From positions 15,053 through 79,052 of the forward strand of contig DATBAK010000084.1 in the NCBI GenBank assembly GCA_036271555.1: a stretch of DNA of 64,000 nucleotides, read 5' to 3'. The position numbers and the translations under genes were made by a program. The notes under the pieces were generated by a model. That model worked only from the letters and a program-made list of their open reading frames with translations, made no database searches and was not told where the DNA came from. Positions 9,466-51,725 of this stretch are shown here, in pieces. The DNA is from Acidimicrobiia bacterium (GTDB lineage Bacteria; Actinomycetota; Acidimicrobiia; IMCC26256; PALSA-610). Every line of letters starts with the position of its first letter. The stretch's first letter is position 1.

Positions 9466-9483
9466 CTCGACCTCGCGGTCGAG
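9466..9483. terminator. candidate bidirectional terminator hairpin between convergent genes
   Basis: CTCGACC-tcgc-GGTCGAG is a perfect 7-bp stem with a 4-nt loop. It lies directly after the TAG at 9463-9465 and 10 nt before the convergent stop at 9493. There is no U-tract. Confidence 0.35.
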
Positions 9484-9492
9484 GCACCCGCA

Positions 9493-11715
9493 CTACGGAT
9501 TCATCGAGCTGTTGTGATCCTGGTTGTACGGGCTCGCCTGCCACGCGGCGAGCTGGAGCTCGGTTCCCTGGTCGTGCGCCATCATCCGCCACGTGCCCGT
9601 GTAGGTGTTGCTCGAGAACACGTTGTTCTGATGGAACGTGATCGCGTTCTCGATGGCCTGGCCCTGGTACGGCGACCACGACGGGTACGTGCCCCACTGC
9701 GAGAACACGCCGTTGAGTCCGCAGCCCTTGTTGAGCGCGCATCCGGGGACCTTCGTCGGGTCGAGGCCGAACTCGTTGTCGTGCACCGACAGGTTCTGCG
9801 TCTTCCAGCGGCAGTCGCTGAAGTACGGCGCGTGGTCGATCGTCCCCGCGACACACGTCGACAGGCTCGCGTGGCCGCCCTCGGTGCAGTCCCTCGTCGG
9901 GTTCGCCGGTGAGTTGCAGAACCGATCCGCGTTCTCCCAGAGGATCACGCCCGACCAGTTGTTCGACAGCACGTTGCCCGAGATCTCGAACGTCGAGTAC
10001 TTCGAGCTGACGCGCGAGTCGCCGCCGCTCTCGGAGATGTAGATCGCGCCGGTCGGGAAGCCCGGGTTCGTCGGGCCGGCCACCCACGCGTTGTTCGCGA
10101 GCGTGTTGTCGTGGATGAAGCCGTTGTAGCTGGCTTCATACATGATTCCTTCGGCGTCGTTGTTCGAGACGTAGTTGCCGCCGATCTCGATGGCGACGTC
10201 GTTCGTGTCGGCCCACACACCGACGCCCTTGTTGTCGTGCACGTAGTTGTTCGTGATCGACGCGCCGCGCACCGCCCAGAGCTTCAGACCGCCGGTGCAG
10301 CCGCAGCCGGGCTGGCGCTTCTCCCAGTCGCCGGTGTTGTTGTCGGCGATCTCGTTGTGGTCGATCACCAGCGCCGAGATGCCGTTGCCCTGTTGGTAGG
10401 CGTTGATCCCGTACTGCCCGTTCGAATCGATGCAGTTGTCGCGGACGGTCTGGTTCGCCCCCGCCATGAGCGCGGCGCCCTGGTTGTCGGCGATGGTGTT
10501 GTTCGCGATCGTCCAGCCATTGGCCGAGTCGTGGTTCACGACACCCTGATCCTGCGGCGACACGAAGTTCCGGATCGTCAGGTGCTCGATCGTCACGTTC
10601 GCGGCGTGCTGCGTGAACGCGAAGTTGTTCTTGCTCTGACCGTCGATCACCGCGCCGGGCGCGCCGACGAACGTGTCGTTGTCGGCCGGGATGACCTGGT
10701 CGTACTCCCCCGACCCGAGCGTGTGGACGCCCGGCGCGAACCAGTACGTGGTGCGCGCGTTCCAGGTGAGGCCGTGGTTGTCGCCCGCGGGCACGACGAT
10801 CGCGCCGGCGGGCGGGGTCGCCGGCCCGTCGAGCACCGAGTGATCGCCGCAGATCTGCGCGGGCGGGGTCTGCGGCGCACCGCCCGGGCTGCCGGGCGTG
10901 GTCGTGGTGGGCGCGGTCGTCGCCGGTGTGGTCGTCGTGGTGACCGGTTCGTCGGCGAGGTTCAGCACGAGCGCGGTCGTGACCGACGTCGGGCCGCTCC
11001 AGCGGGCGTCCGACTCCGCCGCGGCCTTGCCGGCGGGCGTGTTCGTGGCCTCACGCACGCCGTACGTCCAGCGCTGCGTGGGCATGGCACGCGACTGCGA
11101 CGCGCGATCGATCGCGGTCGCGACCTCGCCGCCGACGCCGTCGTTCGTGATCGCGATCTTGCGCGAGCCGTCGGGCGGCGCGAAGTCGACCCGCCAGTGG
11201 GGGCTGCCCTGCGCGAGCACGACGACGGAGTGATCCGACGGGACGTTCACGCTCGGGCCTTGCAGGCCGGTCGCCCCCGCGGCTCCGGCGACGGGTGTCA
11301 CCAGGTCGACGTGCGAGAACGCCATCGTGACCATCGACGCGTGCCCCGCGGGCTGCAGCGTGACACGCGGACGCTCGGCGTTCACCGTCTCGAGGTGCGT
11401 GCACGCGACGAGGCGCGTCGCCTCGCCGTTCACGACGTCGAGCCGCTTGACCCAGCTCGGCGCGCACGTGACCGTCGAGCTCGGCGACGCCTCGACGTAG
11501 CTGACGAGGAAGTCGCCCTTCGCCGTGCCGTGCGGCAGCGCGGTCGACGGCGACGCCGTCGAGCGTCCCGACGACACCGTCGCGTCGCCGATCAGCTCGA
11601 TCTTCGGCTGCGGAGTCGACGCGAACGCGTGTGCGAGCACGGGCACCGCGACGCCGGTTGCGACGAGTGCGATCACTCCGATTCGCAGGCGCCGGTGTGC
11701 GTGATATGAGCGCAT
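9493..11715 (-). CDS. secreted right-handed parallel beta-helix protein (pectate-lyase-fold; probable polysaccharide lyase/hydrolase/epimerase)
   Basis: Chosen start is ATG at 11715, preceded by GGGGGAG. A signal-peptide-like N-terminus follows (RRLRIGVIALVATGVAVPVLAHAFA). A Thr/Pro linker (TTTTPATTAPTTTTPGSPGG) comes next, then repeated beta-helix turns (NNTIADNQGAAL.., IDHNEIADNNTG.., ITNNYVHDNKGVGVW.., NYVSNNDAEGIM.., HDNTLANNAW). The ORF-track start at 12099 is rejected. Confidence 0.75.
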   Translation of the reverse strand: MRSYHAHRRLRIGVIALVATGVAVPVLAHAFASTPQPKIELIGDATVSSGRSTASPSTALPHGTAKGDFLVSYVEASPSSTVTCAPSWVKRLDVVNGEATRLVACTHLETVNAERPRVTLQPAGHASMVTMAFSHVDLVTPVAGAAGATGLQGPSVNVPSDHSVVVLAQGSPHWRVDFAPPDGSRKIAITNDGVGGEVATAIDRASQSRAMPTQRWTYGVREATNTPAGKAAAESDARWSGPTSVTTALVLNLADEPVTTTTTPATTAPTTTTPGSPGGAPQTPPAQICGDHSVLDGPATPPAGAIVVPAGDNHGLTWNARTTYWFAPGVHTLGSGEYDQVIPADNDTFVGAPGAVIDGQSKNNFAFTQHAANVTIEHLTIRNFVSPQDQGVVNHDSANGWTIANNTIADNQGAALMAGANQTVRDNCIDSNGQYGINAYQQGNGISALVIDHNEIADNNTGDWEKRQPGCGCTGGLKLWAVRGASITNNYVHDNKGVGVWADTNDVAIEIGGNYVSNNDAEGIMYEASYNGFIHDNTLANNAWVAGPTNPGFPTGAIYISESGGDSRVSSKYSTFEISGNVLSNNWSGVILWENADRFCNSPANPTRDCTEGGHASLSTCVAGTIDHAPYFSDCRWKTQNLSVHDNEFGLDPTKVPGCALNKGCGLNGVFSQWGTYPSWSPYQGQAIENAITFHQNNVFSSNTYTGTWRMMAHDQGTELQLAAWQASPYNQDHNSSMNP

Positions 11716-12013
11716 CGTCTCGCTCCCCCGTGGACTGCGCATCCGTGGCAGCCAGTCCGATCTCGGCGTCCCCACCTCGGGCCAGGGATCGACGCCCCAC
11801 CGTATTGGCCTTGAGACTGAATGTGGCCGGCGCACGCGGATACGCCGCCGACCTGCACGTTCGCGAGACACGAAACACCCAAATCGCGCGCGCGTGCGGT
11901 TGATCTCGCCCGCGGGACGTCGGTCTGCCCGCTTCTCTCCGCACGCATTCATGAGCACGACCTCATGAGAGGCCGATGCCGCGTACGCGTCGCGATCGCG
12001 AATACTCCGCGCC

Positions 12014-13525
12014 GTGCAACGCGACGACGCGGTCGGTTCTCGTCGGTATCTGGTCGACGGCGCGGTGCTCGCCGGCCTCACCGCGCTCGCGATCTTCACG
12101 CGCGACCGGCCGCTCGCGCCGCACAGCCTCTTCCTCGACGACGCGTGGGTATCGGTCGGCTACCGAAGCCATGGGCTCGCGCAACTCGCGCGCACCACGT
12201 TCACGGCCCCGTTGTTCTCGTTCGCGACCGATCTCTGGCTCAAGGCCGTCGGTCTCACGTCGTTGCACGCGCAGATGCTCGCGTTCGTCGCGGGCGTCGT
12301 CGGTCCCGCGGCCGTGTACCTCGTCGCGCGTTCGATGCGGATGAACCGCGCGGCCGCGCTGGTCGCGGGAGCGCTGCTGCTGTTCGCGCCCTTACACATG
12401 GAGTACTCGTCGCGCGTGAAGGAGTACACGCTCGACGCGCTGCTCACCGCCGCGGTGCTCGTCGTCGCGTGGCGCACGCTCGAGTCGCCGACGCGCCGGA
12501 GGGTGATCGTGCTCACCGCGACCGCGATCGTGGCGAGCGTCGCCTCGTTGACGGTGGCGCCGGTTGTCGCGGGCGCGTTCGCGGCGCTCACAATCCGTGC
12601 CGTCCGCACCCGCACCCACCGCGTCGTCGCCGCGATCGCGACCGGGAGTTACGCGCTCGCGGCGGGCAGCTGGTGGGCCCTCGTCATCCGGCCCGCGTCG
12701 AACTCGCCGCTGCACCGCTACTGGCAGATCGAAGACGGCTTCTGGACCGACGACCACCTGCGGGTGCGCAGCGAGCTCGGCCTCACGCTGGCGCACGTCG
12801 CGCGCGGCTTCTCCGCGCTCCCGCCCGCGCTGACGCTCGCACTCCTCGCGCTCGCGACGATCGTCGCGTTCGCACACGGCATCGAGCGCGCGCTGCTACT
12901 CGTCGTGCCGGGCGCGACCGCACTGCTGCTCTCGGCCGCGAACGTCGCACCGATCGGCGGCCGCGTCGACATCTACCTGTATCCGACGTTCGCGCTGCTG
13001 CTCGCCTTCGCGGTGGAACCGCTGCTCCGGCGGCGCGGCTGGCTCGTGATCGCGCCGATCGCGCTCGTCGCGGTGCTGCTGTCGGTCACACCGCTGCCCC
13101 GCTACTACCCGAACGAGAACCTCGAGCCGCTGGTCGCGTCGCTCGAGGCACGAGCCGCGCCGCGCGACCCGATCGTGATCTACCGGATGAGCGTGTGGGG
13201 GTTCGCGCTGTACACCCGCTGGCCGGTCCGCTTCGTGCGCAGCGCGACGGGCGCGGTCCCGTTCACCGCCGACGTGGCGCGACCCGACATCTACGAGGTC
13301 GCGGGCGGACGACCCGCGAACGTCGTCGACCCGATCGAGGATCGCCGGCGCGTCGACCGGATCTGGTTCCTCGGTTCGCACGCGCGCCTCGTGACCGACG
13401 ACGCGGAGACTCGCACCTTCGAGACCGACGGGTTCCGGCTCGTCTCGCACCTCGGCAACCACAGCGCCTGGCTCGACGAGTTCGTGCGCGCGCCGCGGCA
13501 CGCGCACGCGACCACGACCGCCTAG
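12014..13525 (+). CDS. GT-C fold membrane glycosyltransferase (GT39/ArnT/PMT-like)
   Basis: Polytopic N-terminal two-thirds, with an acidic DD motif in the first loop (LFLDDAWVSVGY), followed by a soluble C-terminal domain. This layout is typical of GT39-like enzymes. The GTG start is not verified. Confidence 0.55.
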   Translation: MQRDDAVGSRRYLVDGAVLAGLTALAIFTRDRPLAPHSLFLDDAWVSVGYRSHGLAQLARTTFTAPLFSFATDLWLKAVGLTSLHAQMLAFVAGVVGPAAVYLVARSMRMNRAAALVAGALLLFAPLHMEYSSRVKEYTLDALLTAAVLVVAWRTLESPTRRRVIVLTATAIVASVASLTVAPVVAGAFAALTIRAVRTRTHRVVAAIATGSYALAAGSWWALVIRPASNSPLHRYWQIEDGFWTDDHLRVRSELGLTLAHVARGFSALPPALTLALLALATIVAFAHGIERALLLVVPGATALLLSAANVAPIGGRVDIYLYPTFALLLAFAVEPLLRRRGWLVIAPIALVAVLLSVTPLPRYYPNENLEPLVASLEARAAPRDPIVIYRMSVWGFALYTRWPVRFVRSATGAVPFTADVARPDIYEVAGGRPANVVDPIEDRRRVDRIWFLGSHARLVTDDAETRTFETDGFRLVSHLGNHSAWLDEFVRAPRHAHATTTA

Positions 13526-16310: not shown

Positions 16311-16757
16311 TCAGCCCTTGCGCTTCGCGACGAACAGCGGGATCTGGCGGGTCGTGCGCTCCTGGTACTCCGCGTACGGCGGGTACGCGGCGACGGCCCG
16401 CTTCCACCACTGCGCCTTCTCGTCGCCGTCGACCTCGCGCACGGAGACGGGGAACGGCTCGGGCCCGTCCTGGATCGCGACGTCGTCGGGGTGCGCGACG
16501 AGGTTGTAGTACCAGACCGGGTGCTTCGGCGCGCCGCCCATCGACGCGACGAGTGCGTACTCGCCGTCGTGCTCGACGCGCATGAGCGCGACCTTGCGGA
16601 GGTTGCCGGACTTGTTGCCGCGCATCGTGACGATCACGACCGGCATGCCCGTGTCGAGCAGCGTGTTCGCTTCTTGCCCGCCGGACCCCTCGTACTGCGC
16701 GACCTGGTCGCGCACCCACTGGGCCGGGCTGGGGACGTACTCGTCGTGGTTGCTCAT
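16311..16757 (-). CDS. deazaflavin (F420)-dependent nitroreductase family (DDN-like) oxidoreductase
   Basis: MSNHDEYVPSP...VVIVTMRGNKSGNLRKVALMRVEHDGEYALVASMGGAPKHPVWYYNL...QIPLFV is the characteristic DDN/PNPOx-like pattern. Start set at ATG 16757. Confidence 0.8.
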   Translation of the reverse strand: MSNHDEYVPSPAQWVRDQVAQYEGSGGQEANTLLDTGMPVVIVTMRGNKSGNLRKVALMRVEHDGEYALVASMGGAPKHPVWYYNLVAHPDDVAIQDGPEPFPVSVREVDGDEKAQWWKRAVAAYPPYAEYQERTTRQIPLFVAKRKG

Positions 16758-16767
16758 GGCGCGAACG

Positions 16768-17784
16768 CTATCGACGCTCGACGGTCCCGTCCGCATGGCG
16801 GGCGAAACGGCCCTCGTCGCGCGGCTGCACCGGGCCGTCGGCGGGCCAGGGCCAGCCGCCGAAACCGGTCTCGCGGTAGTCGGCGAACGCCTGCTCGATG
16901 CCGGCCTCGTCGTTCATCACGAACGGCCCGTACTGCGCGACCGGCTCGCCGATCGGACGGCCCTGCAGCACGAGGGCCTCGGCACCGGCGTCGCCCGCGA
17001 CGAGCTCGACGGTCGCGCCGGCGGCCAGCGCCGCGCCGGTCGGCCCGGCGAGATCGTGGGCACCGATCTGTAGTGCGCCTTCGAACACGTACAGCGTGCG
17101 CAGCGTGTCGGATCCGCCCGCGGCACGGGGCAGCGACCAGCGCGCGCCGGGCTCCGCGACGATGTGCCAGATCGCGACGTCGGCGTCGGCGCGTGACGCC
17201 CACGAGCTCGGCGGCGGCGCGGGTGGCGCGGCGTCGTCGAGCGTGCCCGCGATCACGGTGATGCGCGTCGTGCGGCCGTCGTCGTCCTTCGCGACGACGC
17301 GCGGGATGTCTTCGTCCCACAGCATCGTGAAGTACGGATCGACGAGCTTGTCGGCCGCGGGCAGGTTGAGCCAGATCTGGAACAGCTCGCACGGGTTCGG
17401 GCCGTCGCGGTCGAGCAGCGGGAACATCTCGCTGTGCACGATGCCCTCACCGGCGGTGAGCCACTGCACGTCGCCGCGGCCGAAGCGGGCGGTCGCGCCG
17501 AGCGAGTCGGAGTGGTCGATGAGACCCTGGCGCACGAACGTCACGGTCTCGAAGCCGCGGTGCGGATGCTGCGGGAAGCCGGGCACGACGGTGCCGTGGT
17601 ACATGCGCCACCCGTCGACGCCGCTGAAATCCGAGCCGAGATCGCGTCCCGCGAGCGACGCGTCGGGACCGAGCTGCGCGTTCGCCTTCGGGTACCGGTC
17701 GAGATGGTGGACGCAGAAGAGAAACGGATCCACCGCGGGCCACTGGAAGCCGAGCGGCACGGTCTGGAGCACGGGGTCGGTCAC
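16768..17784 (-). CDS. pirin family protein
   Basis: Bicupin with the pirin metal-site motif (FPQHPHRGFETVTFV...HSDS...VQWLTAGEGIVHSE). Confidence 0.85.
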   Translation of the reverse strand: MTDPVLQTVPLGFQWPAVDPFLFCVHHLDRYPKANAQLGPDASLAGRDLGSDFSGVDGWRMYHGTVVPGFPQHPHRGFETVTFVRQGLIDHSDSLGATARFGRGDVQWLTAGEGIVHSEMFPLLDRDGPNPCELFQIWLNLPAADKLVDPYFTMLWDEDIPRVVAKDDDGRTTRITVIAGTLDDAAPPAPPPSSWASRADADVAIWHIVAEPGARWSLPRAAGGSDTLRTLYVFEGALQIGAHDLAGPTGAALAAGATVELVAGDAGAEALVLQGRPIGEPVAQYGPFVMNDEAGIEQAFADYRETGFGGWPWPADGPVQPRDEGRFARHADGTVERR

Positions 17785-18701: not shown

Positions 18702-19603
18702 TGCATCGAAGGTCACCCGGGTTGTGGGCCGTCGTCGCGGCGTGCGCGATCGTCGCCGGCGCGTGCAGCTCGTCGTCGTCGTCGGGCGCGGGGTCGACGG
18801 GTGCGTCGTCGTCGACCAAGGCGCGCACGACGGCTGCGGTCACCACCACGACGACCGCGCCCCGTCCGACGACGAACGACGCCGACGCCGCGATGCTCGC
18901 GTGGGTGCACTCGCGCCAGGGCACGACCGACGTCTCGATCGGCGACGTCGCGACCGGCAACGTCACCGACGTCACGCCGCTCCCCCAGACCCAGATGCGC
19001 ATCGCGTCGGTCGTGAAGGTGTCGATCGCGATCGCGATCCTGCGCCAGCTGCACGCGCAGGGTCAGCCGGTGAGCTCGACGATCATGAACGACCTCACGG
19101 TCATGATCGAGCAGAGCGACAACGACGCGGCGCAACGACTCTGGACGTTCGAGGGCGGTCCCGACGCGCTGCTCGTGACCGAGCGCACCGCCGGACTCAC
19201 GCAGACCGCGTACCAGGTCGGCCACGGCTGGGGCTTCTCGCTCACGACCGCGCACGACCAGGCGCGGCTGGAGGCGATGCTCGCGGGCAACCGCATGCTC
19301 GACCCGCAGAGCACGCAGCTCGAGCTCAACCTCATGCACCACGTGGTGAGCAGCGAGCAGTGGGGCTTCGCCGATGTGGTCGCGCCCGACATCGCGCCGG
19401 CGATCAAGAACGGTTGGTACGAGGACACCGACGCGCCGGTCTGGCGCGTGCACTGCACCGCGATCTTCGACAGCCCGCTGCTCGCGCACCCGTTCTCGAT
19501 CGCGGTGTTCAACCGCTACCCCGCGACGCTCGGGATGGGCTACGGCGAGGACACCTGCCGCGGCATCGCCCGTCGACTCGGCGCGTACCTCGAGCGCAAG
19601 TAA
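18701..19603 (+). CDS. lipoprotein with class A beta-lactamase-like serine hydrolase domain
   Basis: Lipobox (IVAGAC) followed by a Ser/Thr-rich linker. Has S-x-x-K (SVVK) and SDN (EQSDNDAA). The third motif reads KNG instead of KTG. ATG at 18701 overlaps the surE stop by 1 nt. Confidence 0.65.
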   Translation: MHRRSPGLWAVVAACAIVAGACSSSSSSGAGSTGASSSTKARTTAAVTTTTTAPRPTTNDADAAMLAWVHSRQGTTDVSIGDVATGNVTDVTPLPQTQMRIASVVKVSIAIAILRQLHAQGQPVSSTIMNDLTVMIEQSDNDAAQRLWTFEGGPDALLVTERTAGLTQTAYQVGHGWGFSLTTAHDQARLEAMLAGNRMLDPQSTQLELNLMHHVVSSEQWGFADVVAPDIAPAIKNGWYEDTDAPVWRVHCTAIFDSPLLAHPFSIAVFNRYPATLGMGYGEDTCRGIARRLGAYLERK

Positions 19604-19621
19604 CCCGCCGACCCGCCGGCG

Positions 19622-19706
19622 CCCCGCCCGGTTCGTGCTCGCTGCGCTCGCCGCTCCTGACGCCCCAGCCCCCAAGTCGGGCGGGCCGCGACGCGACCCG
19701 CCCGAT
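19622..19706 (-). repeat. dispersed intergenic repeat family A, copy A1 (inverted orientation)
   Basis: Reverse complement reads GGGCGGGTCGCGTCGCGGCCCGCCCGACTT...GCGTCAGGAGCGGCGAGCGCAGCGAGCACGAAC. It shares the core GGAGCGGCGAGCGCAGCGAG with copies A2-A6 and contains a 9-bp GC hairpin. It lies between convergent genes. Confidence 0.6.
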
Positions 19707-19717
19707 CTGGTGGACGA

Positions 19718-20872
19718 TTACGCGGCCAGCGGGTTGCGCAGGCGGCGGAGCAGCTTGCCGAGGGCGGCGAGGCCGAAGCCCGCACCCGCGAAGCCACCCG
19801 CCGACATCGGCGAGAACGGCGACGATGACGACGACGACGCGCCGACGTTCGCGACGCACGAGCCGTTCAGCTGCGCCGGCGTCGTGCCCGCACCCGTCAC
19901 CGCGGTCGCACCGCCGTCGTGGCGGGCCTTGACGGTGGCGTGGGCGTGGGCCGCCGGAGTCGACGCGCCGTTGCTGCTGCACAGGCCGGTGTCGACGTTG
20001 ATCACCGCTGCGAGCCCGAGGCACACCGTCTTCGCGTTGACCGGGCTGCCCGCGGTCGTACCGACCGGGACGCTCGGCGCTGCCGCACTGTTGCTGCACG
20101 ACAGCAACGAGTCGAGCCCGAGCTGACCGACGAGGTCGCACAGACCGCTCGTCGAGAGGGCCTTCGTCACCGTGGTCGGGTCGAGGGCTGCGCCGCTCGG
20201 CAACGACCCGAGGTTCGACACGTCACCGAGACTGCCGGTCGGGAGCGAACCCGTCGGCAGCAACCCGGTCGGGAGCGAACCCGTCGGGAGCGAACCCGTC
20301 GGCAGCGAACCCGTCGGCAGCGAACCCGTCGGCAGGGAGCCGGTCGGGATCGACGCCGTGCAGGTGTCGATCGGCGCGCCGGCGGCCTGCCGGACCTCGA
20401 CACACCCGCCGACGTCGGCGAGGGCGCGCGGCAGGGTGCCGGCGTCCTGGAGTGCCGACACCTGACCCACGATCGGGTTCGCTCCGTCGATCGCGCCGGG
20501 GCACGACTGCGGGTCGTCACCGCTGAGGATCGTCGCCGCGATGCACGCGTCGACCTTCACGTGCGTGTCGCCCAGACGGACGAGCTGCGAGGTCTGACCC
20601 GTCGGGTCCGAGACCGGGACGCTCGACGCGTTCGGGTGCAGGTGCACGTCGACGTGTGCGGGAACCAACGCGTCGGTTCCGGGCACGGGCGGCGTAGTGG
20701 GTGAGCCGGTTCCGATCGTCACGATCGGGTGGCTCGCGCCACTGCCGTCGAGCAGACCGGGAACCGACACCGACAGCGTCGTCGCACCGGCGACTCCGCC
20801 AAATCCGATGAGCGTCACGCCGGCGACCGCTGCGGCCGCGAATGCGCGCGCGAGAGCATGAATGCGAATCAC
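19718..20872 (-). CDS. secreted Cys-loop / PTGSL-repeat protein of unknown function with C-terminal hydrophobic-basic tail
   Basis: GTG at 20872 is preceded by GAAGGGAAG. The signal peptide is IRIHALARAFAAAAVAGVTLIGFGGVAGA. Four C-x13-C segments and eight tandem PTGSL/PTGLL units are present. The C-terminus reads GGFAGAGFGLAALGKLLRRLRNPLAA. The ORF-track start at 21208 is rejected. Confidence 0.6.
   Translation of the reverse strand: MIRIHALARAFAAAAVAGVTLIGFGGVAGATTLSVSVPGLLDGSGASHPIVTIGTGSPTTPPVPGTDALVPAHVDVHLHPNASSVPVSDPTGQTSQLVRLGDTHVKVDACIAATILSGDDPQSCPGAIDGANPIVGQVSALQDAGTLPRALADVGGCVEVRQAAGAPIDTCTASIPTGSLPTGSLPTGSLPTGSLPTGSLPTGLLPTGSLPTGSLGDVSNLGSLPSGAALDPTTVTKALSTSGLCDLVGQLGLDSLLSCSNSAAAPSVPVGTTAGSPVNAKTVCLGLAAVINVDTGLCSSNGASTPAAHAHATVKARHDGGATAVTGAGTTPAQLNGSCVANVGASSSSSSPFSPMSAGGFAGAGFGLAALGKLLRRLRNPLAA
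20228..20347 (-). repeat. in-frame tandem repeat, 8 x 15 bp, encoding (PTGSL)8
   Basis: Plus-strand units are GAGCGAACCCGTCGG / CAGCGAACCCGTCGG and variants, repeated head-to-tail eight times. All six frames are open here. Confidence 0.9.
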
Positions 20873-20963
20873 AACACTTCCCTTCGTTCGGCGCGCCGGG
20901 CGGCGCGCGCGGAGTGCACGAGACGTCCACTCGTCGACGAGCGGACGCGTGAGGGAGGTGTTG

Positions 20964-21629
20964 CTAACCGGGGCGGGCGATGTCGCGAAGGACGACCGTC
21001 TCCGGTTCGCGCGCCGTATCGATCGGCGCGTGCGACCAGCCGTCGGGTTGACGGCAGCCATCGCGCGTCGTGACTGCGAACGGAACACCGAGGCCCGTCG
21101 ACGGGGAGCCGAACGGACCGTCGTCGACACCGAGCGGGAAGCGATCCGCGCGCCGGTGCCGCACCGCGTGCGCGGGCACGCGTGCCGGAGAAGAAGTGGT
21201 GCGCGCACGCGTCGCGCGCGGCGCCGTGCCGTTGACCTGACGCAGATGCCGAGTCACCGCGTGGTGCGGGTGGGTCGCGACCGTGCGTGCCGCGAGCGGC
21301 GCGACGACGGGGGTCCGCGCGCTCGGCGCGTGTCCGATCGGAGCGATCGACACGACCGGCGCGACCGACTCCCGCACGCGCGTGATCGTGTGCTGCACGA
21401 TCGGATGGACGATCTTCACGACGGGTCGGACCGCCGGCGGCACCGCGGGCTTCGGGAGCGGCGGCCGCGCGCCGTGCCCCGGGTGGGGCAACGCGCCGCC
21501 GAGCGCGCCCGGGATGCTCGGAGTATCGAGCGTCCGCGGTGCGCTCGCGTACGCGGTGCCCGACCAGAGCACGAACGCGAAGGCCGCACCTCCGAAACCG
21601 GCGAGGAGCAGCAGCAGGCGGCGGGACAT
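20964..21629 (-). CDS. secreted Pro/His/Arg-rich hypothetical protein
   Basis: N-terminal signal peptide (RRLLLLLAGFGGAAFAFVLWSGTAYASA). The rest is low-complexity P/V/H/R-rich sequence and I recognise no family. It lies directly upstream, on the same strand, of the Cys-loop protein gene. Confidence 0.45.
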   Translation of the reverse strand: MSRRLLLLLAGFGGAAFAFVLWSGTAYASAPRTLDTPSIPGALGGALPHPGHGARPPLPKPAVPPAVRPVVKIVHPIVQHTITRVRESVAPVVSIAPIGHAPSARTPVVAPLAARTVATHPHHAVTRHLRQVNGTAPRATRARTTSSPARVPAHAVRHRRADRFPLGVDDGPFGSPSTGLGVPFAVTTRDGCRQPDGWSHAPIDTAREPETVVLRDIARPG

Positions 21630-21685
21630 ACAGAAGCAGTCCTACCACTCTGCGTGGTCGTACAAACGCGCTTCGAGGACACCCT

Positions 21686-22669
21686 CTACCAGGACGTTCG
21701 CGCCGCGATCGCGCGCAATTCGGCCCGGGTGGCGTCGTCGCACCGCGCACCCTCGATGCCGGCCCGGAAGGCCGCCTCCGCGGTGCACCCGAGCTGGGCC
21801 GCCGCTTCGTACTCACGGCCGAGGTCGGTGTCGAACATCGCGGGGTCGTCGGTGCTGATCGAGCAGGGCACGTCGGCGGCGAGGAGCGCCGGCAGCGGGT
21901 GCGCGGCGAGCGTGTCGACGACGCGCGTGCGCACGTTCGACACCGGGCACACGTCGCACACGACACGGCGGTCGGCGAGCTCACGCAGCAGCGCGGGATC
22001 CTCGACCGCGCGCACACCGTGCCGCAGCCGGTCGGCGTGGAGCAGGTCGAGCGCGGCGCGAATCGACTCGACCCCCGCGGCCTCACCCGCGTGCGGCACC
22101 GACCCGAGCCCGCCACCCTTCGCGAGGTCGAACGCGGGCGCGTACTTCTCCGGCGGCCCTTGTGCCTCGAGGCCGCCGAGCCCGAGCGCGACGATGCCGC
22201 GGTCCCGGTACTTGAGCGAGTACCGCGCGGTCTCCATCGCGGCTTCGAGGTCGAACGTGCGCGGGATGTCGGGGGTCAGGCGCACCTCGACACCGTGCCG
22301 TTCCCTCGCCTCGGCCGCGCCGTCGCAGAAGCCGGTGAAGACCTCGTCCCACGACGCGCCCCCGAGCACGCGCTCCGCCGGGGAGAAGATGCCTTCGAGG
22401 TAGACCGCGCCGTAGGACGCGGCTTCGGCCGCGTAGCTCACGACGACCTCGCGGAAGTCGAGCTCCGTGCGGATCACGTGGGTCGTCATGACCCAGAGCT
22501 TGATGAAGTGGTCGAAGTCGGTGAACTCGTAGAGCGCGGCGAGGTCTTCGACGGAGTCGACCGGCAGGCCGACGCGGTTGCGGCGCGCGATGTGCAACAG
22601 CTCGGGCGCGCGCACGGTGCCCTCGAGGTGGACGTGCAGCTCGATCTTCGGACTCGGAACGGTGGTCAT
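21686..22669 (-). CDS. add: adenosine deaminase
   Basis: Metal-site motifs ELHVHLEGT, PHAGE and SISTDDPAMF. Length 327 aa. Confidence 0.9.
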   Translation of the reverse strand: MTTVPSPKIELHVHLEGTVRAPELLHIARRNRVGLPVDSVEDLAALYEFTDFDHFIKLWVMTTHVIRTELDFREVVVSYAAEAASYGAVYLEGIFSPAERVLGGASWDEVFTGFCDGAAEARERHGVEVRLTPDIPRTFDLEAAMETARYSLKYRDRGIVALGLGGLEAQGPPEKYAPAFDLAKGGGLGSVPHAGEAAGVESIRAALDLLHADRLRHGVRAVEDPALLRELADRRVVCDVCPVSNVRTRVVDTLAAHPLPALLAADVPCSISTDDPAMFDTDLGREYEAAAQLGCTAEAAFRAGIEGARCDDATRAELRAIAARTSW

Positions 22670-22725
22670 GACACAACTCCCGGACGCGCGGTGACGGACG
22701 TCTGGACCGCGTCGTCCCGCCGCAA

Positions 22726-22800
22726 CGGGCGGGTCGCTGTGCGGCTCGTCCGATCCGTCGGCTGCGGCGTCAGGAGCGGCGAGCGAAAGCGGGCGCGACC
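22726..22800 (+). repeat. repeat family A, copy A2
   Basis: ACGGGCGGGTCGCTGTGCGGC...GCGTCAGGAGCGGCGAGCGAAAGCGGGCGCGACC, in the add / NUDIX divergent spacer. Confidence 0.55.
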
Positions 22801-22887
22801 AGCAAAATCCGAACCGGGGTCGTCAGACCCTGCCCCTCTGGTCGGCTCGAGACGCGTCGACGATACCTCGCGTTAGCGTCGACAGGC

Positions 22888-23373
22888 TTGGACACCGTCG
22901 AACGTCGCGCCGCGCGCGTGCTGCTCATCGCCGACGGCGCGGTGTTGCTGATCCAGGGTCACGATCCCTCGCAGCCGGAGCTCGGCCCGTGGTGGCACAC
23001 GCCCGGTGGCGGCATCGAGGAGGGTGAGGCACTCGAGACCGCCGCGGCGCGCGAGGTCGAGGAGGAGACCGGCCTGCACGTCGATGTCGAGTCGCTCGGC
23101 CCGTGCATCGCGACGCGGCGCACGACGTTCGCGTTCGACGGCCGCAGCTACGAGCAGGACGAGTGGTTCTTCGCCCTACGCGTCGATCGCTTCGAGCCAC
23201 ACGGTCGCGGCTGGATCGAGATCGAGCAGCGCTCGCTGCTGCGGTACGGATGGTGGACACCCGACGAGCTCGACGCGACGAGCGAGATCGTGTACCCCGC
23301 CGAGCTCGGCACGGTGGTACGGGCGCTGCTCGCGGGCCCGATCGTCGAACCGCGCCGGCTGTCGGGCGACTAG
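22888..23373 (+). CDS. NUDIX hydrolase
   Basis: Nudix box GGGIEEGEALETAAAREVEEETG. TTG start as given in the ORF track. Confidence 0.8.
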   Translation: MDTVERRAARVLLIADGAVLLIQGHDPSQPELGPWWHTPGGGIEEGEALETAAAREVEEETGLHVDVESLGPCIATRRTTFAFDGRSYEQDEWFFALRVDRFEPHGRGWIEIEQRSLLRYGWWTPDELDATSEIVYPAELGTVVRALLAGPIVEPRRLSGD

Positions 23374-23381
23374 CCGGGGCA

Positions 23382-23963
23382 CTAGGTGGAGGGACGCGGA
23401 TCCGCGAGCTGAATCGTGCGGATCAGCGCGTCGCCGATCGGCAGCGGCGCGCAGCCGTGATCGTGCTCGCACACGAAGTCGAACTTCGACTTCGCGGCCG
23501 AGTGGCACGCCGCGCAGTTACCGCCGAATCGGTTCACGACGTTCTGCACGCCGCGCGTCAGGATCTTGGTTCCCGAGTTCGACACGTCGAGCGAGAAGAA
23601 CTCCCAGTCGTCGGTCGCGGGATTCCAACCGGGGCGGTGCTTCACCATCGCCTCTTGCGGCACGAGCTGGAGCACGGTGCCGACCGGGTACGTGCCGCCG
23701 GCGGCGGAGTGCGCGACCGCGAGCGTGCCCTTCGAGTTGCCGAGCAGGTTGGCGACGAAGAAGCCGCGCACCGGCGTCATCGTCTTCAAGCTCGTGAAGC
23801 TCGTCGCCGTCACGTGCACGTCGGCGACGGTGCTCGTGGGCCCGCGGCTCGACGCCGGATGCGCACCGCGTGACGCGGTGCTCGAGCAGCCGAAGGCGAC
23901 GAGACCGACGACGAGCGGCGCCGGCCACGCGGCCGCGAGGGAACGAAGGCGGATCCGGAGCAC
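23382..23963 (-). CDS. lipoprotein with single heme-c site, cytochrome P460-like
   Basis: Lipobox (LVAFGCSS) and one CXXCH motif (NCAACH) near the C-terminus. The preceding WEFFSLD region resembles the cytochrome P460 family. Confidence 0.6.
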   Translation of the reverse strand: MLRIRLRSLAAAWPAPLVVGLVAFGCSSTASRGAHPASSRGPTSTVADVHVTATSFTSLKTMTPVRGFFVANLLGNSKGTLAVAHSAAGGTYPVGTVLQLVPQEAMVKHRPGWNPATDDWEFFSLDVSNSGTKILTRGVQNVVNRFGGNCAACHSAAKSKFDFVCEHDHGCAPLPIGDALIRTIQLADPRPST

Positions 23964-24017: not shown

Positions 24018-24677
24018 TCAGACGGTTGCGGCGCCCGACGATGACGATGACGACGGCGACGGCGCCGCCGCGATCCCGTCGAGCACGTCCAGGTCCGCGA
24101 GCGCGCTCGCGATCGCGTCGCCGACATCGGGAGGCGGCTGGTTGCCGTCAATGGTCACGACGATGCCGAGACCCGAGAACCATTCGATCGCAGGCCGGGT
24201 CTGCGACTCGTAGAGCGCGAGCCGCAGCCGGATCGCGCTGACGTCGTCATCGGAGCGCGCCCGCTCCGCGAGCCGCTCGAACGAGACGCGCGTCGGCACC
24301 GACAGCTCGACCACGCGCCGCACGACGTGGTGCGTCGACCGTTCGATCAGCGCGTGCGCCTGCGGGAGCGTGCGCGGGAAGCCGTCGAGGAGCACGAGCT
24401 CGTAGGCCATCTCATCGAGCGCGCGCAGCACGATCTCGACGGTGAGGTCGTCGGGGACGAGGCCGCCGGCATCGACGAGGGACTGGAGCTTCAGACCGAG
24501 CGGCGTGCGCCGCGCGATGAGATCGCGGAAGTGCTCGCCGCTCGAGAGGTGGCCCCAGCCGTGCTGCTCCGCGAGCCGCGCACACTGGGTGCCCTTGCCC
24601 GAGCCGGGCGGGCCGGCGACGAGCACGATCCCGACGGACGACTCGGCGCGAGGACGTTCGCTCGTGACCAAGATCAC
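24018..24677 (-). CDS. adk: adenylate kinase family protein (stand-alone paralog, short LID)
   Basis: P-loop GPPGSGKGTQ, LLDGFPRT, and a short LID region without a Cys4 zinc motif. It has a Ser-rich C-terminal tail. The true start may be an internal GTG nearer the P-loop. Confidence 0.7.
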   Translation of the reverse strand: MILVTSERPRAESSVGIVLVAGPPGSGKGTQCARLAEQHGWGHLSSGEHFRDLIARRTPLGLKLQSLVDAGGLVPDDLTVEIVLRALDEMAYELVLLDGFPRTLPQAHALIERSTHHVVRRVVELSVPTRVSFERLAERARSDDDVSAIRLRLALYESQTRPAIEWFSGLGIVVTIDGNQPPPDVGDAIASALADLDVLDGIAAAPSPSSSSSSGAATV

Positions 24678-24839
24678 ATTTTAGAGCGGCTCGGAGGCCT
24701 CGGCTCCAGCCCGATCGCGCCTCGCGCGCGGATGAAATCACGCGCTTCATCACAGGAGCCGACCCGGCCCATCGGAGCTGCTCACCCGCAACGGCGGGCG
24801 CCGCAGACCGTTAGCCTCCGGCCGGCAGGGAGGACCCAC

Positions 24840-25742
24840 ATGCGCATCGGAATGTTCGGTGGCGACACCGCGAACCGCACGATCGACGACGTGATCGCCG
24901 CGGCGCGGGAGACCGAGGCCGCGGGCTTCGCGTCGTTCTGGCTGCCGCAGATCTTCGGCATGGACGCGATCAGCCTCCTCGCGGTGGTCGGTCGCGAGGT
25001 GCCGCGCATCGAGCTCGGCACCGCGGTCGTGCCGACCTACCCGCGCCACCCGATGATGCTGGCGCAGCAGACGCTCACGACCCAGGCCGCGACCGGCGGC
25101 CGTTTCATCCTCGGCATCGGGCTCTCGCACCAGATCGTGATCGAGGGCATGTTCGGCCTGTCGTTCGACAAGCCGGCGCGCCACATGCGCGAGTACCTCT
25201 CGATTCTCGTGCCGCTCGTGCACGGCGAGGACGCGCAGTTCGCAGGCGAGACGTTGAGCGCGCACGGATCCGTGAACGTTGCCGACGCGCCGCCGTGCCC
25301 GATCCTCATCGCCGCGCTCGCGCCGCGCATGCTCCAGCTCGCGGGCGCGGTCGCCGACGGCACGATCACGTGGATGACGGGTCCCGCGACGCTCGCCGAG
25401 CACACGATCCCGTCGATCACGAAAGCCGCACGCGACGCCGGCCGGCCCGCGCCGCGCGTCTGCGCGTCGCTGCCCGTGTGTGTCACCGACGACACGGATG
25501 CGGCGCGTGCACGCGCCGCGCAAGAGTTCTCGGTCTACGGCATGCTGCCGTCGTACCGGGCGATGCTCGACCGCGAAGGCGCGGCCGGCCCCGCCGATGT
25601 CGCGATCGTCGGCGACGCAGCGACGGTACGCGACGCGGTGAACCAACTCGGCGACATCGGCGTCACCGACTTCGCTCCCGCGCTCTTCGGGTCGCCCGAC
25701 GAGGCCCGCGCAACACGCGACCTGCTCGCGAGCCTGTTGTAG
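24840..25742 (+). CDS. LLM-class (luciferase-like) F420-dependent oxidoreductase
   Basis: ATG at 24840 follows GGGAGGA. The TIM-barrel LLM pattern is present (FWLPQIFGMDA..., GRFILGIGLSHQ..., ITWMTGP). Confidence 0.8.
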   Translation: MRIGMFGGDTANRTIDDVIAAARETEAAGFASFWLPQIFGMDAISLLAVVGREVPRIELGTAVVPTYPRHPMMLAQQTLTTQAATGGRFILGIGLSHQIVIEGMFGLSFDKPARHMREYLSILVPLVHGEDAQFAGETLSAHGSVNVADAPPCPILIAALAPRMLQLAGAVADGTITWMTGPATLAEHTIPSITKAARDAGRPAPRVCASLPVCVTDDTDAARARAAQEFSVYGMLPSYRAMLDREGAAGPADVAIVGDAATVRDAVNQLGDIGVTDFAPALFGSPDEARATRDLLASLL

Positions 25743-28204: not shown

Positions 28205-29137
28205 CTATGTGCCCGCGAGCGCGGCGACGACGGGCGCGAAGTCCTCGAAGTTGTCGCCCCCGACGACGACGTTGCTGACGCCCCACTCGTCGCGCCGCTT
28301 CTGCAGCTCGTCGATCATCTCCGGGATCGTGCCGATGAGCGCGGCGCCCGAGCCGAGGACCTCTTCGGGCGTCGTGTCGAAGCCGGGTGCGACCGCGGCC
28401 GCGAACGAGGGCGCGTCGTCGGTGATCGCGAGGACGAAGTAGCGGATCTGTAGCTCGATCGCGTCGAAGCGATCGCCCGCGCCTTCGCGGATCCAGCCGA
28501 TCTTCTTCGCCGTCTCTTCGCGACTCGCGCTCTTCGCGGCGTCGGTCGTCACCGCGCCGGCGCGCAGGTTCGGGTTGATGCCGACGATGTTCGCCTCGCG
28601 CCCCGCGAGCCGGAGCACCTTCGGTGCGCCACCGCCGATGAGGATCGGCGGGCCCGGCTGCTGCACCGGCTTCGGGATCGCGTCGTAATCGGTGATCGTG
28701 TAGTGCTTGCCCTGGAACGAGAACGCGCCGTCGGCCCAGCAGCCCTTGATCACCTGGAGCGCTTCGTCGAGCCGCGCGATGCGCGTCCCCGCGGAGTCGT
28801 ACGGGAGGCCGAGCGCGTCGTAGTCGGACTTCATCCAGCCCGCGCCGATGCCGAGCTCGCAGCGACCGCCGGAGATCTCGTCGATCGTCGCCATCTCCTT
28901 GGCGAGGATCGCGGGGTGCTTGTAGTCGTTGTCGAACACGAGCGCGGCGACGCGCAACGTCGTCGTGTACGCGGCGGCCATCGCGAGCGCGGGCATCGGC
29001 GCGAGCCGCGTGTCGATGAAGTGGTCGGGCATGTAGAGCGTCGAGTAGCCGAGGTCCTCGACCTGACCCGCGAAGCCGCGCCAGTCCGCGTTCTCGATGC
29101 CGCTCGCCTGCACGCCGAACCGGAACGGATGGCTCAT
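28205..29137 (-). CDS. LLM-class F420-dependent oxidoreductase
   Basis: FRFGVQ...GYSTLYMPDHF...LGIGAGW...PPILIGGGAPKVLRLAG. It is a paralog of the next gene. Confidence 0.85.
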   Translation of the reverse strand: MSHPFRFGVQASGIENADWRGFAGQVEDLGYSTLYMPDHFIDTRLAPMPALAMAAAYTTTLRVAALVFDNDYKHPAILAKEMATIDEISGGRCELGIGAGWMKSDYDALGLPYDSAGTRIARLDEALQVIKGCWADGAFSFQGKHYTITDYDAIPKPVQQPGPPILIGGGAPKVLRLAGREANIVGINPNLRAGAVTTDAAKSASREETAKKIGWIREGAGDRFDAIELQIRYFVLAITDDAPSFAAAVAPGFDTTPEEVLGSGAALIGTIPEMIDELQKRRDEWGVSNVVVGGDNFEDFAPVVAALAGT

Positions 29138-29149
29138 CGTCGCACTCCT

Positions 29150-30091
29150 CTACTGGCCGGCGAGCTTCGCCACGACCGGCGCGAACTGGGTTATCGCCTC
29201 GTGCGGGATCACGGTGTAGCTCATGTGCCACCGCTCGCGCCGGGCTTCGAGCAACTCCACGATCTCCGACTCGGAGCCGACGAGCGTCACCGGCGCCATC
29301 ACCGCGTCGTCGGCGGGCACACCGAAGCTGCCCGCCATCGCCTCGACGATGCCCGTGCGATCGTCGGTGAAGTGCACGAAGCCGACGAGCGTCTGGATCT
29401 CGAGGTCGTCGAAGTGCGCGCCCGCGGCGTCGCGCAGCCACTGGATCTTCTCGTCGGTGCGCGCGCTCGTGAGCGAGCTCGCGGCGTCGCTCGAGTTGCC
29501 GTCGCCCGAACGGAGATTCGCGTTCACGCCGACGATCTGCGCCTCGCGCGCCGCGAGCGCGAGCACCTTCGGACCGCCGCCCCCGATCACGAACGGCGGA
29601 TGCGGCTTCTGCACCGGCTTCGGCTCACCGTCGAGCTCGGTGACCGTGTAGTGCTCGCCGTGGAACGAGAACGGTCCGTCGGCGAACAGACCCTTGAGGA
29701 TCGTGATCGACTCCGCGAGGCGCGCGATGCGCACGCCGGCACGATCGAGCGGCATCCCCGCCTTCTCGTAGTCGACCGTCATCCACCCCGCGCCGATGCC
29801 CATCTCGAGCCGGCCGTCGGAGAGGAGGTCGATCGTCGCGGCCTCGCGTGCGAGCACGACCGGATGCTTGTAGTCGTTGCCGAGCACGAGCGGACCGACG
29901 CGCAGCGTCGTGGTGACCGCGGCCGCGGTCGCGAGCGCAGGGATCGGCGCAAGGGGGTGCTCGACGAAGTGGTCGGGCACGTACAGCGTCGAGTAGCCGA
30001 GCGCCTCGGCCTGGCGCGCGGTCTCCGCGAACTCCTGCGCCGAGCCCGTCTTCGGAACGATCACCCCGAAGCGGAACCGCCTCTCCACCAC
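29150..30091 (-). CDS. LLM-class F420-dependent oxidoreductase (paralog)
   Basis: FRFGVI...GYSTLYVPDHF...MGIGAGW...PPFVIGGGGPKVLALAA. Tandem with 28205-29137. Confidence 0.85.
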   Translation of the reverse strand: MVERRFRFGVIVPKTGSAQEFAETARQAEALGYSTLYVPDHFVEHPLAPIPALATAAAVTTTLRVGPLVLGNDYKHPVVLAREAATIDLLSDGRLEMGIGAGWMTVDYEKAGMPLDRAGVRIARLAESITILKGLFADGPFSFHGEHYTVTELDGEPKPVQKPHPPFVIGGGGPKVLALAAREAQIVGVNANLRSGDGNSSDAASSLTSARTDEKIQWLRDAAGAHFDDLEIQTLVGFVHFTDDRTGIVEAMAGSFGVPADDAVMAPVTLVGSESEIVELLEARRERWHMSYTVIPHEAITQFAPVVAKLAGQ

Positions 30092-30143
30092 GCCCCCTGT
30101 CGCCGCCGGTCGTTGCCGGCCGCACGCTAGAGGGTGGCGCGCC

Positions 30144-30626
30144 TCAGGTGCCCGTCGAGCCGAACCCGCCGAGGCCGCGGTCGGAGTCGTCGAGCGATTC
30201 GACCGCGCGCCACTCGACGGCGGCGACGCGTTGGATCACGAGCTGCGCGATGCGGTCGCCGCGCGTCACCGTGAACGACTCGTGCGGGTCGAGGTTCACG
30301 AGCAGCACCTTCAGCTCGTCGCGGTAGCCCGCGTCGACGAGCCCGGGCGTGTTGAGCACCGTGACGCCGTGGCGCAGCGCGAGCCCCGAGCGCGGCTGCA
30401 CGAATCCCGCGTAGCCGGGCGGGATCGCGATCGCGACACCGGTCGGCACGAGCGCGCGCCCGCCGCCCGGAGCGAGCACCGCGTCGCCGCGCGCGACGAG
30501 GTCGTAGCCGGCGTCGTGCGAGTGCTGGCGTGTGGGTAGCGACAGGCCGGGATCGAGTTGCCGGATCGCGATCGCGAGCGGTTCGACGCGCTGCGCCGCC
30601 GCGAGGTCGATCGTGGGCTCAGCCAC
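30144..30626 (-). CDS. dut: dUTP diphosphatase
   Basis: AGYDL, PRSGLA, GLVDAGYRDE and GGFGSTG motifs. Its start overlaps the end of the DUF3501 gene by 8 nt. Confidence 0.9.
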   Translation of the reverse strand: MAEPTIDLAAAQRVEPLAIAIRQLDPGLSLPTRQHSHDAGYDLVARGDAVLAPGGGRALVPTGVAIAIPPGYAGFVQPRSGLALRHGVTVLNTPGLVDAGYRDELKVLLVNLDPHESFTVTRGDRIAQLVIQRVAAVEWRAVESLDDSDRGLGGFGSTGT

Positions 30627-42777: not shown

Positions 42778-42794
42778 GCGCGGCGTCCGTGCGC

Positions 42795-51556: not shown

Positions 51557-51612
51557 GGGGATCTGATCGAGTTTGACGACGCTCGCGCGTCGCCTGGCTC
51601 GATCAGATCCCC
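51557..51612. repeat. palindromic repeat family B, copy B2
   Basis: GGGGATCTGATCGAG-tttgacgacgctcgcgcgtcgcctgg-CTCGATCAGATCCCC, with perfect 15-bp arms. Confidence 0.7.
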
Positions 51613-51725
51613 CGTACCCCCGCTTCCCCGTCGCACCCGCGTGCGATCCTGCGCGCGGTTGTCGTCGAATCGACGCGACCCGGCTTCCCCCGTCGATGGT
51701 CTTCGAGCAGAACCGGGAAGCCTCC

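Follow-up and report, generated by a model that had tools for sequence, protein, structure and literature searches.

A covarying three-way-junction RNA is predicted to mask the ribosome-binding site of an orphan cell-envelope protein gene in an Acidimicrobiia bacterium

What joins two adjacent genes that are both predicted to encode exported proteins of no recognised family? The question is raised by a locus of an uncultured, metagenome-assembled Acidimicrobiia bacterium (GenBank assembly GCA_036271555.1, contig DATBAK010000084.1, positions 15,053 to 79,052). The 64,000-nucleotide stretch analysed here, referred to as the window, has a GC content of 70%; all coordinates are those of the window, and both genes and the features within and between them lie on its minus strand. 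Gene A (19718..20872; NCBI locus tag VH914_19135), an open reading frame (ORF) read from the sequence, encodes a predicted exported protein of 384 residues. Gene B (20964..21629; VH914_19140), located upstream, encodes a Pro-rich, very basic protein of 221 residues that carries a signal peptide; we propose that B acts as a leader or coupling ORF for A. The more interesting feature of the locus is the RNA between the genes, where a conserved, covarying fold is predicted to mask the ribosome-binding site of A in a layout that resembles that of the secretion monitors, save for the target gene.

The spacer between B and A in the window comprises 91 nucleotides. When the junctions of related loci are placed side by side, the segment UCCCUUC just past the B stop codon is seen to complement the segment GAAGGGA just ahead of the A start codon. 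Between this anti-Shine–Dalgarno (anti-SD) segment and the Shine–Dalgarno (SD) sequence lie two GC-rich hairpins, the sequences of which differ among loci with their self-complementarity kept. By folding and covariation, the region from the B stop codon to the A start codon (20870..20966) is predicted to form a three-way junction. The 5′ strand of its closing helix, P1 (GCAACAC-C-UCCCU; 20952..20964), is composed of an extension and the anti-SD and begins at the last base of the B stop codon. The 3′ strand (20871..20885) is composed of the A SD sequence GAAGGGAAG and the extension GUGUUGU, which continues into the start codon, such that P1 in the window is bounded by the final base of UAG on one side and takes in the first two bases of GUG on the other. 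The other two helices, placed by folding and supported by covariation, are the hairpins P2 (CGUCCGCUCG-UCGA-CGAGUGGACG; 20924..20947) and P3 (CG-C-GCGCGCC-GCCC-GGCGCGC-CG; 20889..20911).

Minimum-free-energy folding of ten independent spacers, each folded separately, returned the same P1/P2/P3 junction in all ten, with free energies of −37.5 to −56.6 kcal/mol and z-scores of −2.8 to −8.2; for nine of the ten, none of 200 shuffled sequences was as stable. In every spacer the anti-SD core begins 3–7 nucleotides past the B stop codon and the SD sequence ends 5–8 nucleotides before the A start codon. Only the SD and anti-SD cores are invariant, and the loops and strands of the junction differ between loci, both in length and in sequence. 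In spacer alignments made with plain MAFFT (A7 and A9) the anti-SD was misplaced, and core-anchored and model-based alignments were therefore used. With the conserved cores aligned without gaps, pairing in P1 amounts to 82.9%, compared with 72.7 ± 2.1% for shuffles (none of 500 reached the observed value) and 44–58% for slid controls, and 7 of 14 P1 pairs show compensatory changes. Starting from a seed of three loci, a covariance model located the remaining junctions and gave a seven-sequence alignment. In this model-fitted alignment, 94.7% of the cells of the whole structure are paired (78.9 ± 2.0% for shuffles and 36–51% for slid controls), and 14 of 26 pairs, spread across all three helices, have changed on both sides. 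RNAalifold likewise predicts P1, P2 and P3. A second covariance model, from which the window and the loci L003, L008 and L002 had been withheld, finds exactly those four junctions in 123 kb (E-values of 5.8e-6, 4.5e-7, 1.5e-6 and 4.7e-6), with nothing else below 0.1. No Rfam family was matched at its gathering score, the best overlapping entry being Scr5676 (16.6 bits versus a threshold of 56; E = 4.9). Of two scans of metagenomes, one found nothing and the other yielded only L010, which duplicates the junction of L004.

The initial annotation had described the gene upstream of A as a co-oriented neighbour coding for a Pro/His/Arg-rich protein with a signal peptide, and the composition of B is as described (13.6% Pro, 10.9% Arg and 5.4% His). 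Mature B is very basic, with an isoelectric point (pI) of 10–12 (about 11.8 for the protein of the window). Six relatives of B were detected in databases, and no family. Only three parts of B are well conserved: the signal peptide, a patch located 35–55 residues from the end, and the last 12–15 residues. The signal peptide (MSRRLLLLLAGFGGAAFAFVLWSGTAYA, followed by S; 21543..21629) is the best-conserved part, with a mean column conservation of 0.78, compared with 0.38–0.50 in the middle of the protein and 0.66 over the last 15 residues. The pattern M.RRLLL.LAGLG.AA.A..LWSG.A.A is kept in all ten B sequences and was judged to be an export signal by eye, without a predictor. A Tat signal was considered, as RR is followed by LLL, and rejected, since RR is replaced by HR in one member and the Tat pathway would be unlikely to accept a disordered Pro-rich protein. 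At the C-terminus (LRDIARPG and stop; 20964..20990), R-P-G-stop is invariant in alignment A5, and the ten loci with an intact frame end in ARPG-stop (seven), GRPG-stop (two) or SPPG-stop (one). The codons used for this ending vary synonymously (Arg CGC, CGT, CGA or CGG; Pro CCC or CCG; Gly GGT, GGC or GGA; stop TAG or TAA), which argues that the constraint acts on the peptide and rules out an RNA-level cause for the conservation of RPG. With conservation distributed in this way, B looks like a leader or monitor rather than an enzyme.

B is found ahead of A on the same strand, at a distance of 84–94 nucleotides, in the window and at L003, L004, L005, L006, L008, L009 and L011; at L001, B is present in a frameshifted form and A is intact. 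Indeed, B precedes A at every locus for which upstream DNA is available. B has evolved faster than A: for given genome pairs, the identities are 55% versus 80%, 38% versus 53%, 28% versus 42%, and 24% versus 35% for B and A, respectively. The pairing of the two genes had thus been recognised correctly at the outset; the SD-sequestering RNA and the confinement of conservation in B to its ends, which change the meaning of that pairing, had been overlooked. The next gene upstream of B (region 21686-23373), on the same strand and at a distance of 56 nucleotides in the window, encodes an adenosine deaminase. This gene also lies upstream of B at L001, L003, L006, L009 and L012, and the NUDIX gene beyond it is retained at L001, L006 and L009. 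The B–A unit may be transcribed from the deaminase promoter. A simple scan of 19400-22000 for sigma-70 promoters and intrinsic terminators found nothing.

A working mechanism that we consider fairly probable is the coupling of A to B by ribosome-dependent unmasking of the A SD sequence. The SD would be locked in P1, the closing helix of a fold of approximately −50 kcal/mol that fills the B–A spacer. A ribosome with a stop codon in its A site covers roughly ten more nucleotides. Because the 5′ strand of P1 begins at the B stop codon, a ribosome sitting there would have to melt P1, with a footprint covering all of the P1 extension and the greater part of the anti-SD, and would thereby expose the SD sequence of A. 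A is then probably made only when ribosomes finish translating B. P2 and P3 would hold the B stop and the A start near each other in space, and as P1 sets the two codons side by side, re-initiation could be favoured. More tentatively, the RPG-stop of B may be a site of programmed arrest or secretion sensing, although we would not count on it: a long dwell at the B stop would set the amount of A made, and the dwell may shorten when the Sec machinery pulls on the signal peptide of B, as in SecM, VemP and the NSP-stop class. Peptides that end in Gly are among those released most slowly by release factors. Release after Pro or Gly is reported to be intrinsically slow (Pierson 2016, cited in PMC7246954). 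Considered as a whole, the best explanation is that B and A form a lineage-restricted, translationally coupled pair, with an RNA lock on A and B as its leader or monitor, a composite reading to which we give about even credence. The bolder proposal, in which RPG-stop B represents a new class of secretion-monitoring, termination-type arrest peptide that governs a surface protein through a three-way-junction SD mask, is speculative and in our judgement rather unlikely.

In SecM, MifM and VemP, a stalled ribosome opens an SD-sequestering stem–loop (PMC10987492), and by analogy the B–A switch may be a SecM-like secretion monitor. Like B–A, the pairs SecM–secA, VemP–secDF2 and MifM–yidC2 have an upstream ORF whose product starts with an export signal and ends in a conserved motif, the stretch between the two being poorly conserved; an intergenic stem–loop hides the SD of the second gene at a position that a ribosome held at the end of the first ORF can reach (PMC10987492). 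Among the properties by which monitoring substrates are recognised (Fujiwara et al. 2024, PMC10987492), B displays those numbered (ii) to (iv), namely an export signal, a conserved C-terminus and an intervening spacer of more than 30 residues (approximately 170–200 in B), and an SD-masking mRNA structure lies within reach of a ribosome at its stop codon. The differences are that the downstream gene here encodes an orphan surface protein, rather than SecA, SecDF or YidC; that the R-P-G motif abuts the stop codon; that B is longer and its arrest is only proposed; and that the RNA is a three-way junction of approximately 95 nucleotides instead of a single hairpin. Arrest peptides of the stop type (NSP-stop, NAP-stop and DGMK-stop) halt the ribosome when the stop codon has entered its A site (PMC10987492), and actinobacterial ApcA stalls on RAP/G with Gly in the A site (PMC7897499; Sakiyama et al. 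2021). NSP-stop and ApcA have in common with B a Pro-containing motif at the extreme C-terminus, directly before the stop, and ApcA additionally shares the residues Arg, Pro and Gly (R-A-P-G) and the phylum Actinomycetota. However, the order and spacing of the residues differ (A-R-P-G-stop versus R-A-P/G or N-S-P-stop), and the B–A unit is not located upstream of sec or yidC. An SD-sequestering hairpin was not seen for ApcA and ApdA (PMC7897499), whereas the SD mask is the strongest feature of the locus described here.

Gene A begins with a GTG start codon located 6 nucleotides downstream of the SD sequence. The PGAP product is shorter (366 residues) and begins at an internal Met; the 384-residue start is favoured because residues 1–18 are conserved among homologues and the SD spacing fits. 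The N-terminus (MIRIHALARAFAAAAVAGVTLIGFGGVAGA/TT) resembles a signal peptide, as judged from the sequence without a predictor; the signal peptide (residues 1–30, 20783..20872), with a cleavage-like site at AGA/TT, was read by eye and is conserved in alignments A1 and A3. A contains nine Cys residues (110, 124, 157, 171, 245, 259, 284, 298 and 339), the first eight of which form four pairs, each with exactly 13 intervening residues. Loop 1 (C110-x13-C124; 20501..20545), loop 2 (C157-x13-C171; 20360..20404), loop 3 (C245-x13-C259; 20096..20140) and loop 4 (C284-x13-C298; 19979..20023) were defined from the sequence and the family alignment, and the columns of loop 4 are invariant in 14 of 14 sequences. 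Each loop is probably closed by a disulfide. The ninth, unpaired Cys (C339, in the motif NGSC; 19856..19858) is invariant in the family. It gives every member an odd number of Cys, is located approximately 19 residues ahead of the tail, and may serve in an intermolecular disulfide or as an attachment site. Loops 2 and 3 are separated by a hypervariable linker, an imperfect repeat of eight 15-bp units (20228..20347) that encodes five PTGSL, one PTGLL and two further PTGSL. The eight units occur in five distinct 15-bp versions, with PTGLL as unit 6, and Tandem Repeats Finder reports 7.3 copies with 89% matches. A run of six consecutive Ser is also present, and the ectodomain is acidic (pI 4.7). 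The best explanation of this anatomy is that A is an exported, acidic cell-envelope protein in which the repeat linker divides the loops two and two. The initial annotation of A was thus essentially right as regards the signal peptide, the four loops with their sequences, and the poly-Ser stretch, and erred in taking the repeat for an exact (PTGSL)8 and in missing the invariant ninth Cys.

AlphaFold2 gave no usable fold for A, with a mean predicted local distance difference test score of 31 and 43 from alignments of 7 and 14 sequences, respectively. Only loops 1, 3 and 4 reach local values of 60–77 (approximately 76 for loop 1), each as a short helix that starts at the first Cys. Comparison of the loops with hhalign gave a score of 21.5 for loops 1 and 4 (shuffles 4.1 ± 2.6) and 16.7 for loops 1 and 2 (shuffle maximum 15.7), with no significant score for loop 3, which weakly suggests that loops 1, 2 and 4 are diverged copies of one motif.

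Relatives of A are few. Six, at 50–100% identity, are present among 5.8 billion clustered proteins, and searching 1.84 billion representatives with a profile brought in six further full-length members, all more distant, along with two fragments and one frameshift-fused form. Most of the 65 matches in the profile search were low-complexity PTGSL matches and were set aside. The family amounts to approximately 12 clusters in 1.8–5.8 billion proteins; two scans of GTDB representative genomes found no relative. The 12 full-length members (325–399 residues) each contain exactly nine Cys in the same pattern and have the same tail. All 12 preserve the C-x13-C spacing in loops 1, 2 and 4, and ten preserve it in loop 3; on this comparison the spacing is not due to chance. 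One entry of the representative library (P0010, 504 residues) matches A over its N-terminal 190 residues, continues as unrelated Arg-rich sequence, and is probably a frameshifted gene call. In the linker, close homologues carry 8, 6, 6 and 3 PTGSL-type units, distant members carry repeats of GSLPTGD(V/L) or the unrelated SGI(D/G)DGSAT and LG(S/T)DA(T/V)RNA, and member P0007 nearly lacks a linker. A length-variable tract had been predicted from the window, and the differing copy numbers show that the prediction holds between lineages. Searches of A, B and all family members against Pfam, NCBIfam and PDB sequences detected no relative, in agreement with the earlier failure to recognise a family for either protein; the Pfam model Pentapeptide_2 (PF01469) reached 13.1 bits, compared with a gathering score of 26.4, and did so in a single member. 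Like the chaplins and the small disulfide-containing surface proteins of actinobacteria, A is predicted to be exported and has short hydrophobic segments bracketed by Cys. It differs from chaplins in Cys spacing, size and architecture, and the loose likeness suggested at first finds no support in sequence, as the Pfam chaplin model (PF03777) gave no match. On these sequence comparisons, A defines a small new orphan protein family with four Cys-x13-Cys loops, a ninth Cys, a hypervariable linker and a conserved tail.

The tail of A (19721..19819; C-terminus SAGGFAGAGFGLAALGKLLRRLRNPLAA), delimited by alignment and hydropathy, comprises a P-F-S motif, a Gly/Ala-rich hydrophobic segment of approximately 15 residues and the end RRLRNPLAA. 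Its layout of a short hydrophobic segment and a basic end, noted in the initial annotation together with the lack of LPXTG, is conserved across the family. The invariant Cys (N-G/A-S-C) is followed after approximately 12 residues by S-x-P-[FLIV]-[STG], extended ahead of the hydrophobic stretch as S-x-P-[FLIV]-[STG]-x-x-x-A-G-G, then by the Gly/Ala-rich segment of approximately 15 residues, and finally by [RK]R-x-[RK]-[RAN]-[PAS], mostly RRxRRP, plus three residues. Kyte–Doolittle means are 1.4–1.9 for the best 15-residue window and 1.1–1.5 for the best 19-residue window, and the hydrophobic segment is followed by 3 to 7 basic and zero acidic residues. LPXTG and LAXTG sorting signals and the CTERM signals described by Haft (PEP-, GlyGly- and MYXO-CTERM) likewise place a short hydrophobic segment and a basic cluster behind a small conserved motif, and in most A members a Gly-Gly is found ahead of the hydrophobic stretch.

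Could the tail then be a cleaved signal for a dedicated sortase-, exosortase- or rhombosortase-like enzyme, with B merely a second secreted protein? The tripartite layout present in all members, a hydrophobic segment too short and weak for a comfortable transmembrane helix, the almost invariant RRxRRP and the invariant unpaired Cys upstream would fit such a signal. However, none of the 14 family members contains an LPXTG, LAXTG, PEP or other known signature, and the NCBIfam CTERM models, searched with eight family tails at E ≤ 10, gave nothing at cut-off, GlyGly-CTERM and PEP-CTERM not matching and the scores of PVV_CTERM (13.3 bits versus 27), CoaP_CTERM (12.5 versus 35) and MYXO-CTERM (8.7 versus 20) lying at noise level. 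Among the candidate ORFs scanned across the 64-kb window, Pfam detected no sortase, rhomboid or exosortase domain, the content being housekeeping genes, F420-linked oxidoreductases, ABC transporters and a polysaccharide cluster. True sorting signals are common to several unrelated proteins of one genome, whereas no other ORF of at least 100 residues with an A-type tail occurs in the 126 kb scanned. A tail-only profile search of the 5.8-billion-protein set returned a 49-residue fragment and a PEP-CTERM fragment (E = 7) and did not recover the known A members, and a literature search found no papers on sortase in Acidimicrobiia. With the sorting-signal tests negative or uninformative, the tail is taken by default as a type I membrane anchor, and A is reasonably likely to be held by its short hydrophobic segment and a basic RRxRRP stop-transfer tail, not by a processed sorting signal. 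The sorting reading of the initial annotation accordingly loses ground to the simple transmembrane anchor that it had named as the outcome that would count against it, an outcome that is the simpler reading and falls short of proof. Cleavage by a dedicated enzyme appears improbable, and a dedicated recognition signal in the tail is a minority possibility, sustained by the near-invariant RRxRRP and the unpaired Cys.

Other explanations concern the B–A unit itself. Classical coupling by unmasking of a ribosome-binding site is known from phage MS2 coat–replicase and from rpmI–rplT, in which, as here, the downstream SD is paired with a sequence that the upstream ribosome traverses. B could be a true secreted or membrane partner of A, the fold enforcing their ordered, roughly proportional synthesis and the conserved C-terminus of B serving the mature protein without acting on the ribosome. 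This plain coupling, a credible alternative to which we assign a lesser chance, would draw on the identical geometry and covariation, and is favoured further by the complementary charges of the A ectodomain and mature B, by the conserved internal patch of B and by the fact that A is not a secretion factor. It fits less well with the faster evolution of B, with the concentration of its conservation at the two ends and with a strictly terminal R-P-G-stop encoded by synonymous codons, the pattern by which arrest peptides have been found (PMC10987492). In contrast to MS2 and rpmI–rplT, the B stop and A start are 91 nucleotides apart and bridged by two conserved hairpins, and the C-terminus of the upstream peptide is itself under strong selection. 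A conserved multi-helix junction that sequesters an SD, as many riboswitch expression platforms do, and a CACUC element between P2 and P3 at several loci could instead point to a riboregulator of A that responds to a ligand, a protein or temperature independently of B translation. Riboswitch aptamers, however, show the opposite pattern to the variable loops and junction strands seen here, no Rfam family was matched, and the 5′ strand of P1 always lies directly against the B stop, such that we regard this option as quite improbable. An RNA thermometer was rejected, as a fold of −37 to −57 kcal/mol is far too stable. Least probable of these is that B is an artefact of GC-rich DNA and the region a long structured 5′ untranslated region of A. 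Its Arg/Pro/His-rich make-up is typical of spurious ORFs in DNA of 70% GC, its GC content at third codon positions (GC3; 0.84) is below that of neighbouring genes, and it is frameshifted at L001. Yet an ORF of 207–234 codons stays open in nine divergent loci despite many indels, the signal peptide and RPG-stop remain in one frame, the relation GC1 > GC2 with a high GC3 fits the frame of B, and the PGAP, JGI and ENA gene callers all call it.

Several points weigh against the preferred reading of B and A as a coupled pair with an RNA lock and a leader or monitor. The anatomy, conservation, covarying fold and geometry are results of this analysis; the evidence as a whole is comparative and thermodynamic, with expression, stalling and coupling proposed from it. 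The sample is small, with ten distinct spacers drawn mostly from one lineage, and the covariation counts for the whole structure come from an alignment fitted to the model. A is no Sec or YidC component, no Sec or YidC domain is encoded nearby, and property (i) of the monitoring substrates, an upstream ORF of a sec or yidC gene, is absent from B, given that A is an orphan. The arrest motifs that have been tested (RAPP, RAPG, RAGP, NSP-stop and others) do not include R-P-G-stop. At 207–234 residues, B exceeds the known monitors in length and, given a conserved patch within it (PLGD...PFAV), may function in its own right. At L001 (9200-10000 of a 176-kb ENA contig), the B sequence is spread over two or more frames and runs on into an intact A. 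One extra base is present there in a GC-rich run before the B stop, with which the C-terminus would become ...SRAPG-stop, and the broken B could be an assembly error or a real pseudogene. As regards A, the disulfide pairing is deduced solely from Cys spacing because structure prediction failed, and the hydrophobic segment is of modest length and hydropathy for a transmembrane helix while RRxRRP is conserved beyond the need of a plain stop-transfer tail, which together leave room for a recognition signal.

To our knowledge, all known bacterial monitoring substrates have been found by looking upstream of sec and yidC genes, and such searches are blind to other targets. Here, a signal for export, conservation at the extreme C-terminus, a covarying SD mask and the matching geometry, which make up the full computational signature, are found together ahead of an unrelated, lineage-specific surface protein, at a locus from the poorly studied class Acidimicrobiia. 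If coupling or arrest holds, a conserved X-stop upstream ORF adjoining an anti-SD would provide a recipe for genome-wide searches, a new RNA motif would be added, and a way would open to study how an orphan envelope protein that is otherwise uncharacterisable is regulated. Should the RPG-stop monitor prove true, force-sensing regulation by nascent chains would extend past the protein-localisation machinery, and the locus would be the first actinobacterial example with a clear SD-sequestering RNA.

The remainder of the window contains several further features. A cell-envelope polysaccharide cluster (65-12159) encodes two GT4/GT1 glycosyltransferases, a Wzz chain-length determinant, a Wzy/O-antigen-ligase-like protein, a glycosyltransferase and methyltransferase reading frame, and a right-handed β-helix (NosD-like) protein of 888 residues. 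An ORF of 750 residues (41194-43446, minus strand) with a coding-like GC pattern and no Pfam family lies beside an oligopeptide ABC transporter operon. A protein of 193 residues (23382-23963, minus strand) has a lipoprotein-like N-terminus, a CAACH haem-binding motif and a sub-threshold match to cytochrome P460 (21.9 bits versus 27). An AbiEi antitoxin-like regulator with AbiEi_4 and AbiEi_1 domains is encoded at 51567-52664 (plus strand). F420-linked genes are clustered at 16311-16913, 24051-25742 and 28205-30235, and comprise one F420H2-dependent quinone reductase and three luciferase-like monooxygenases.

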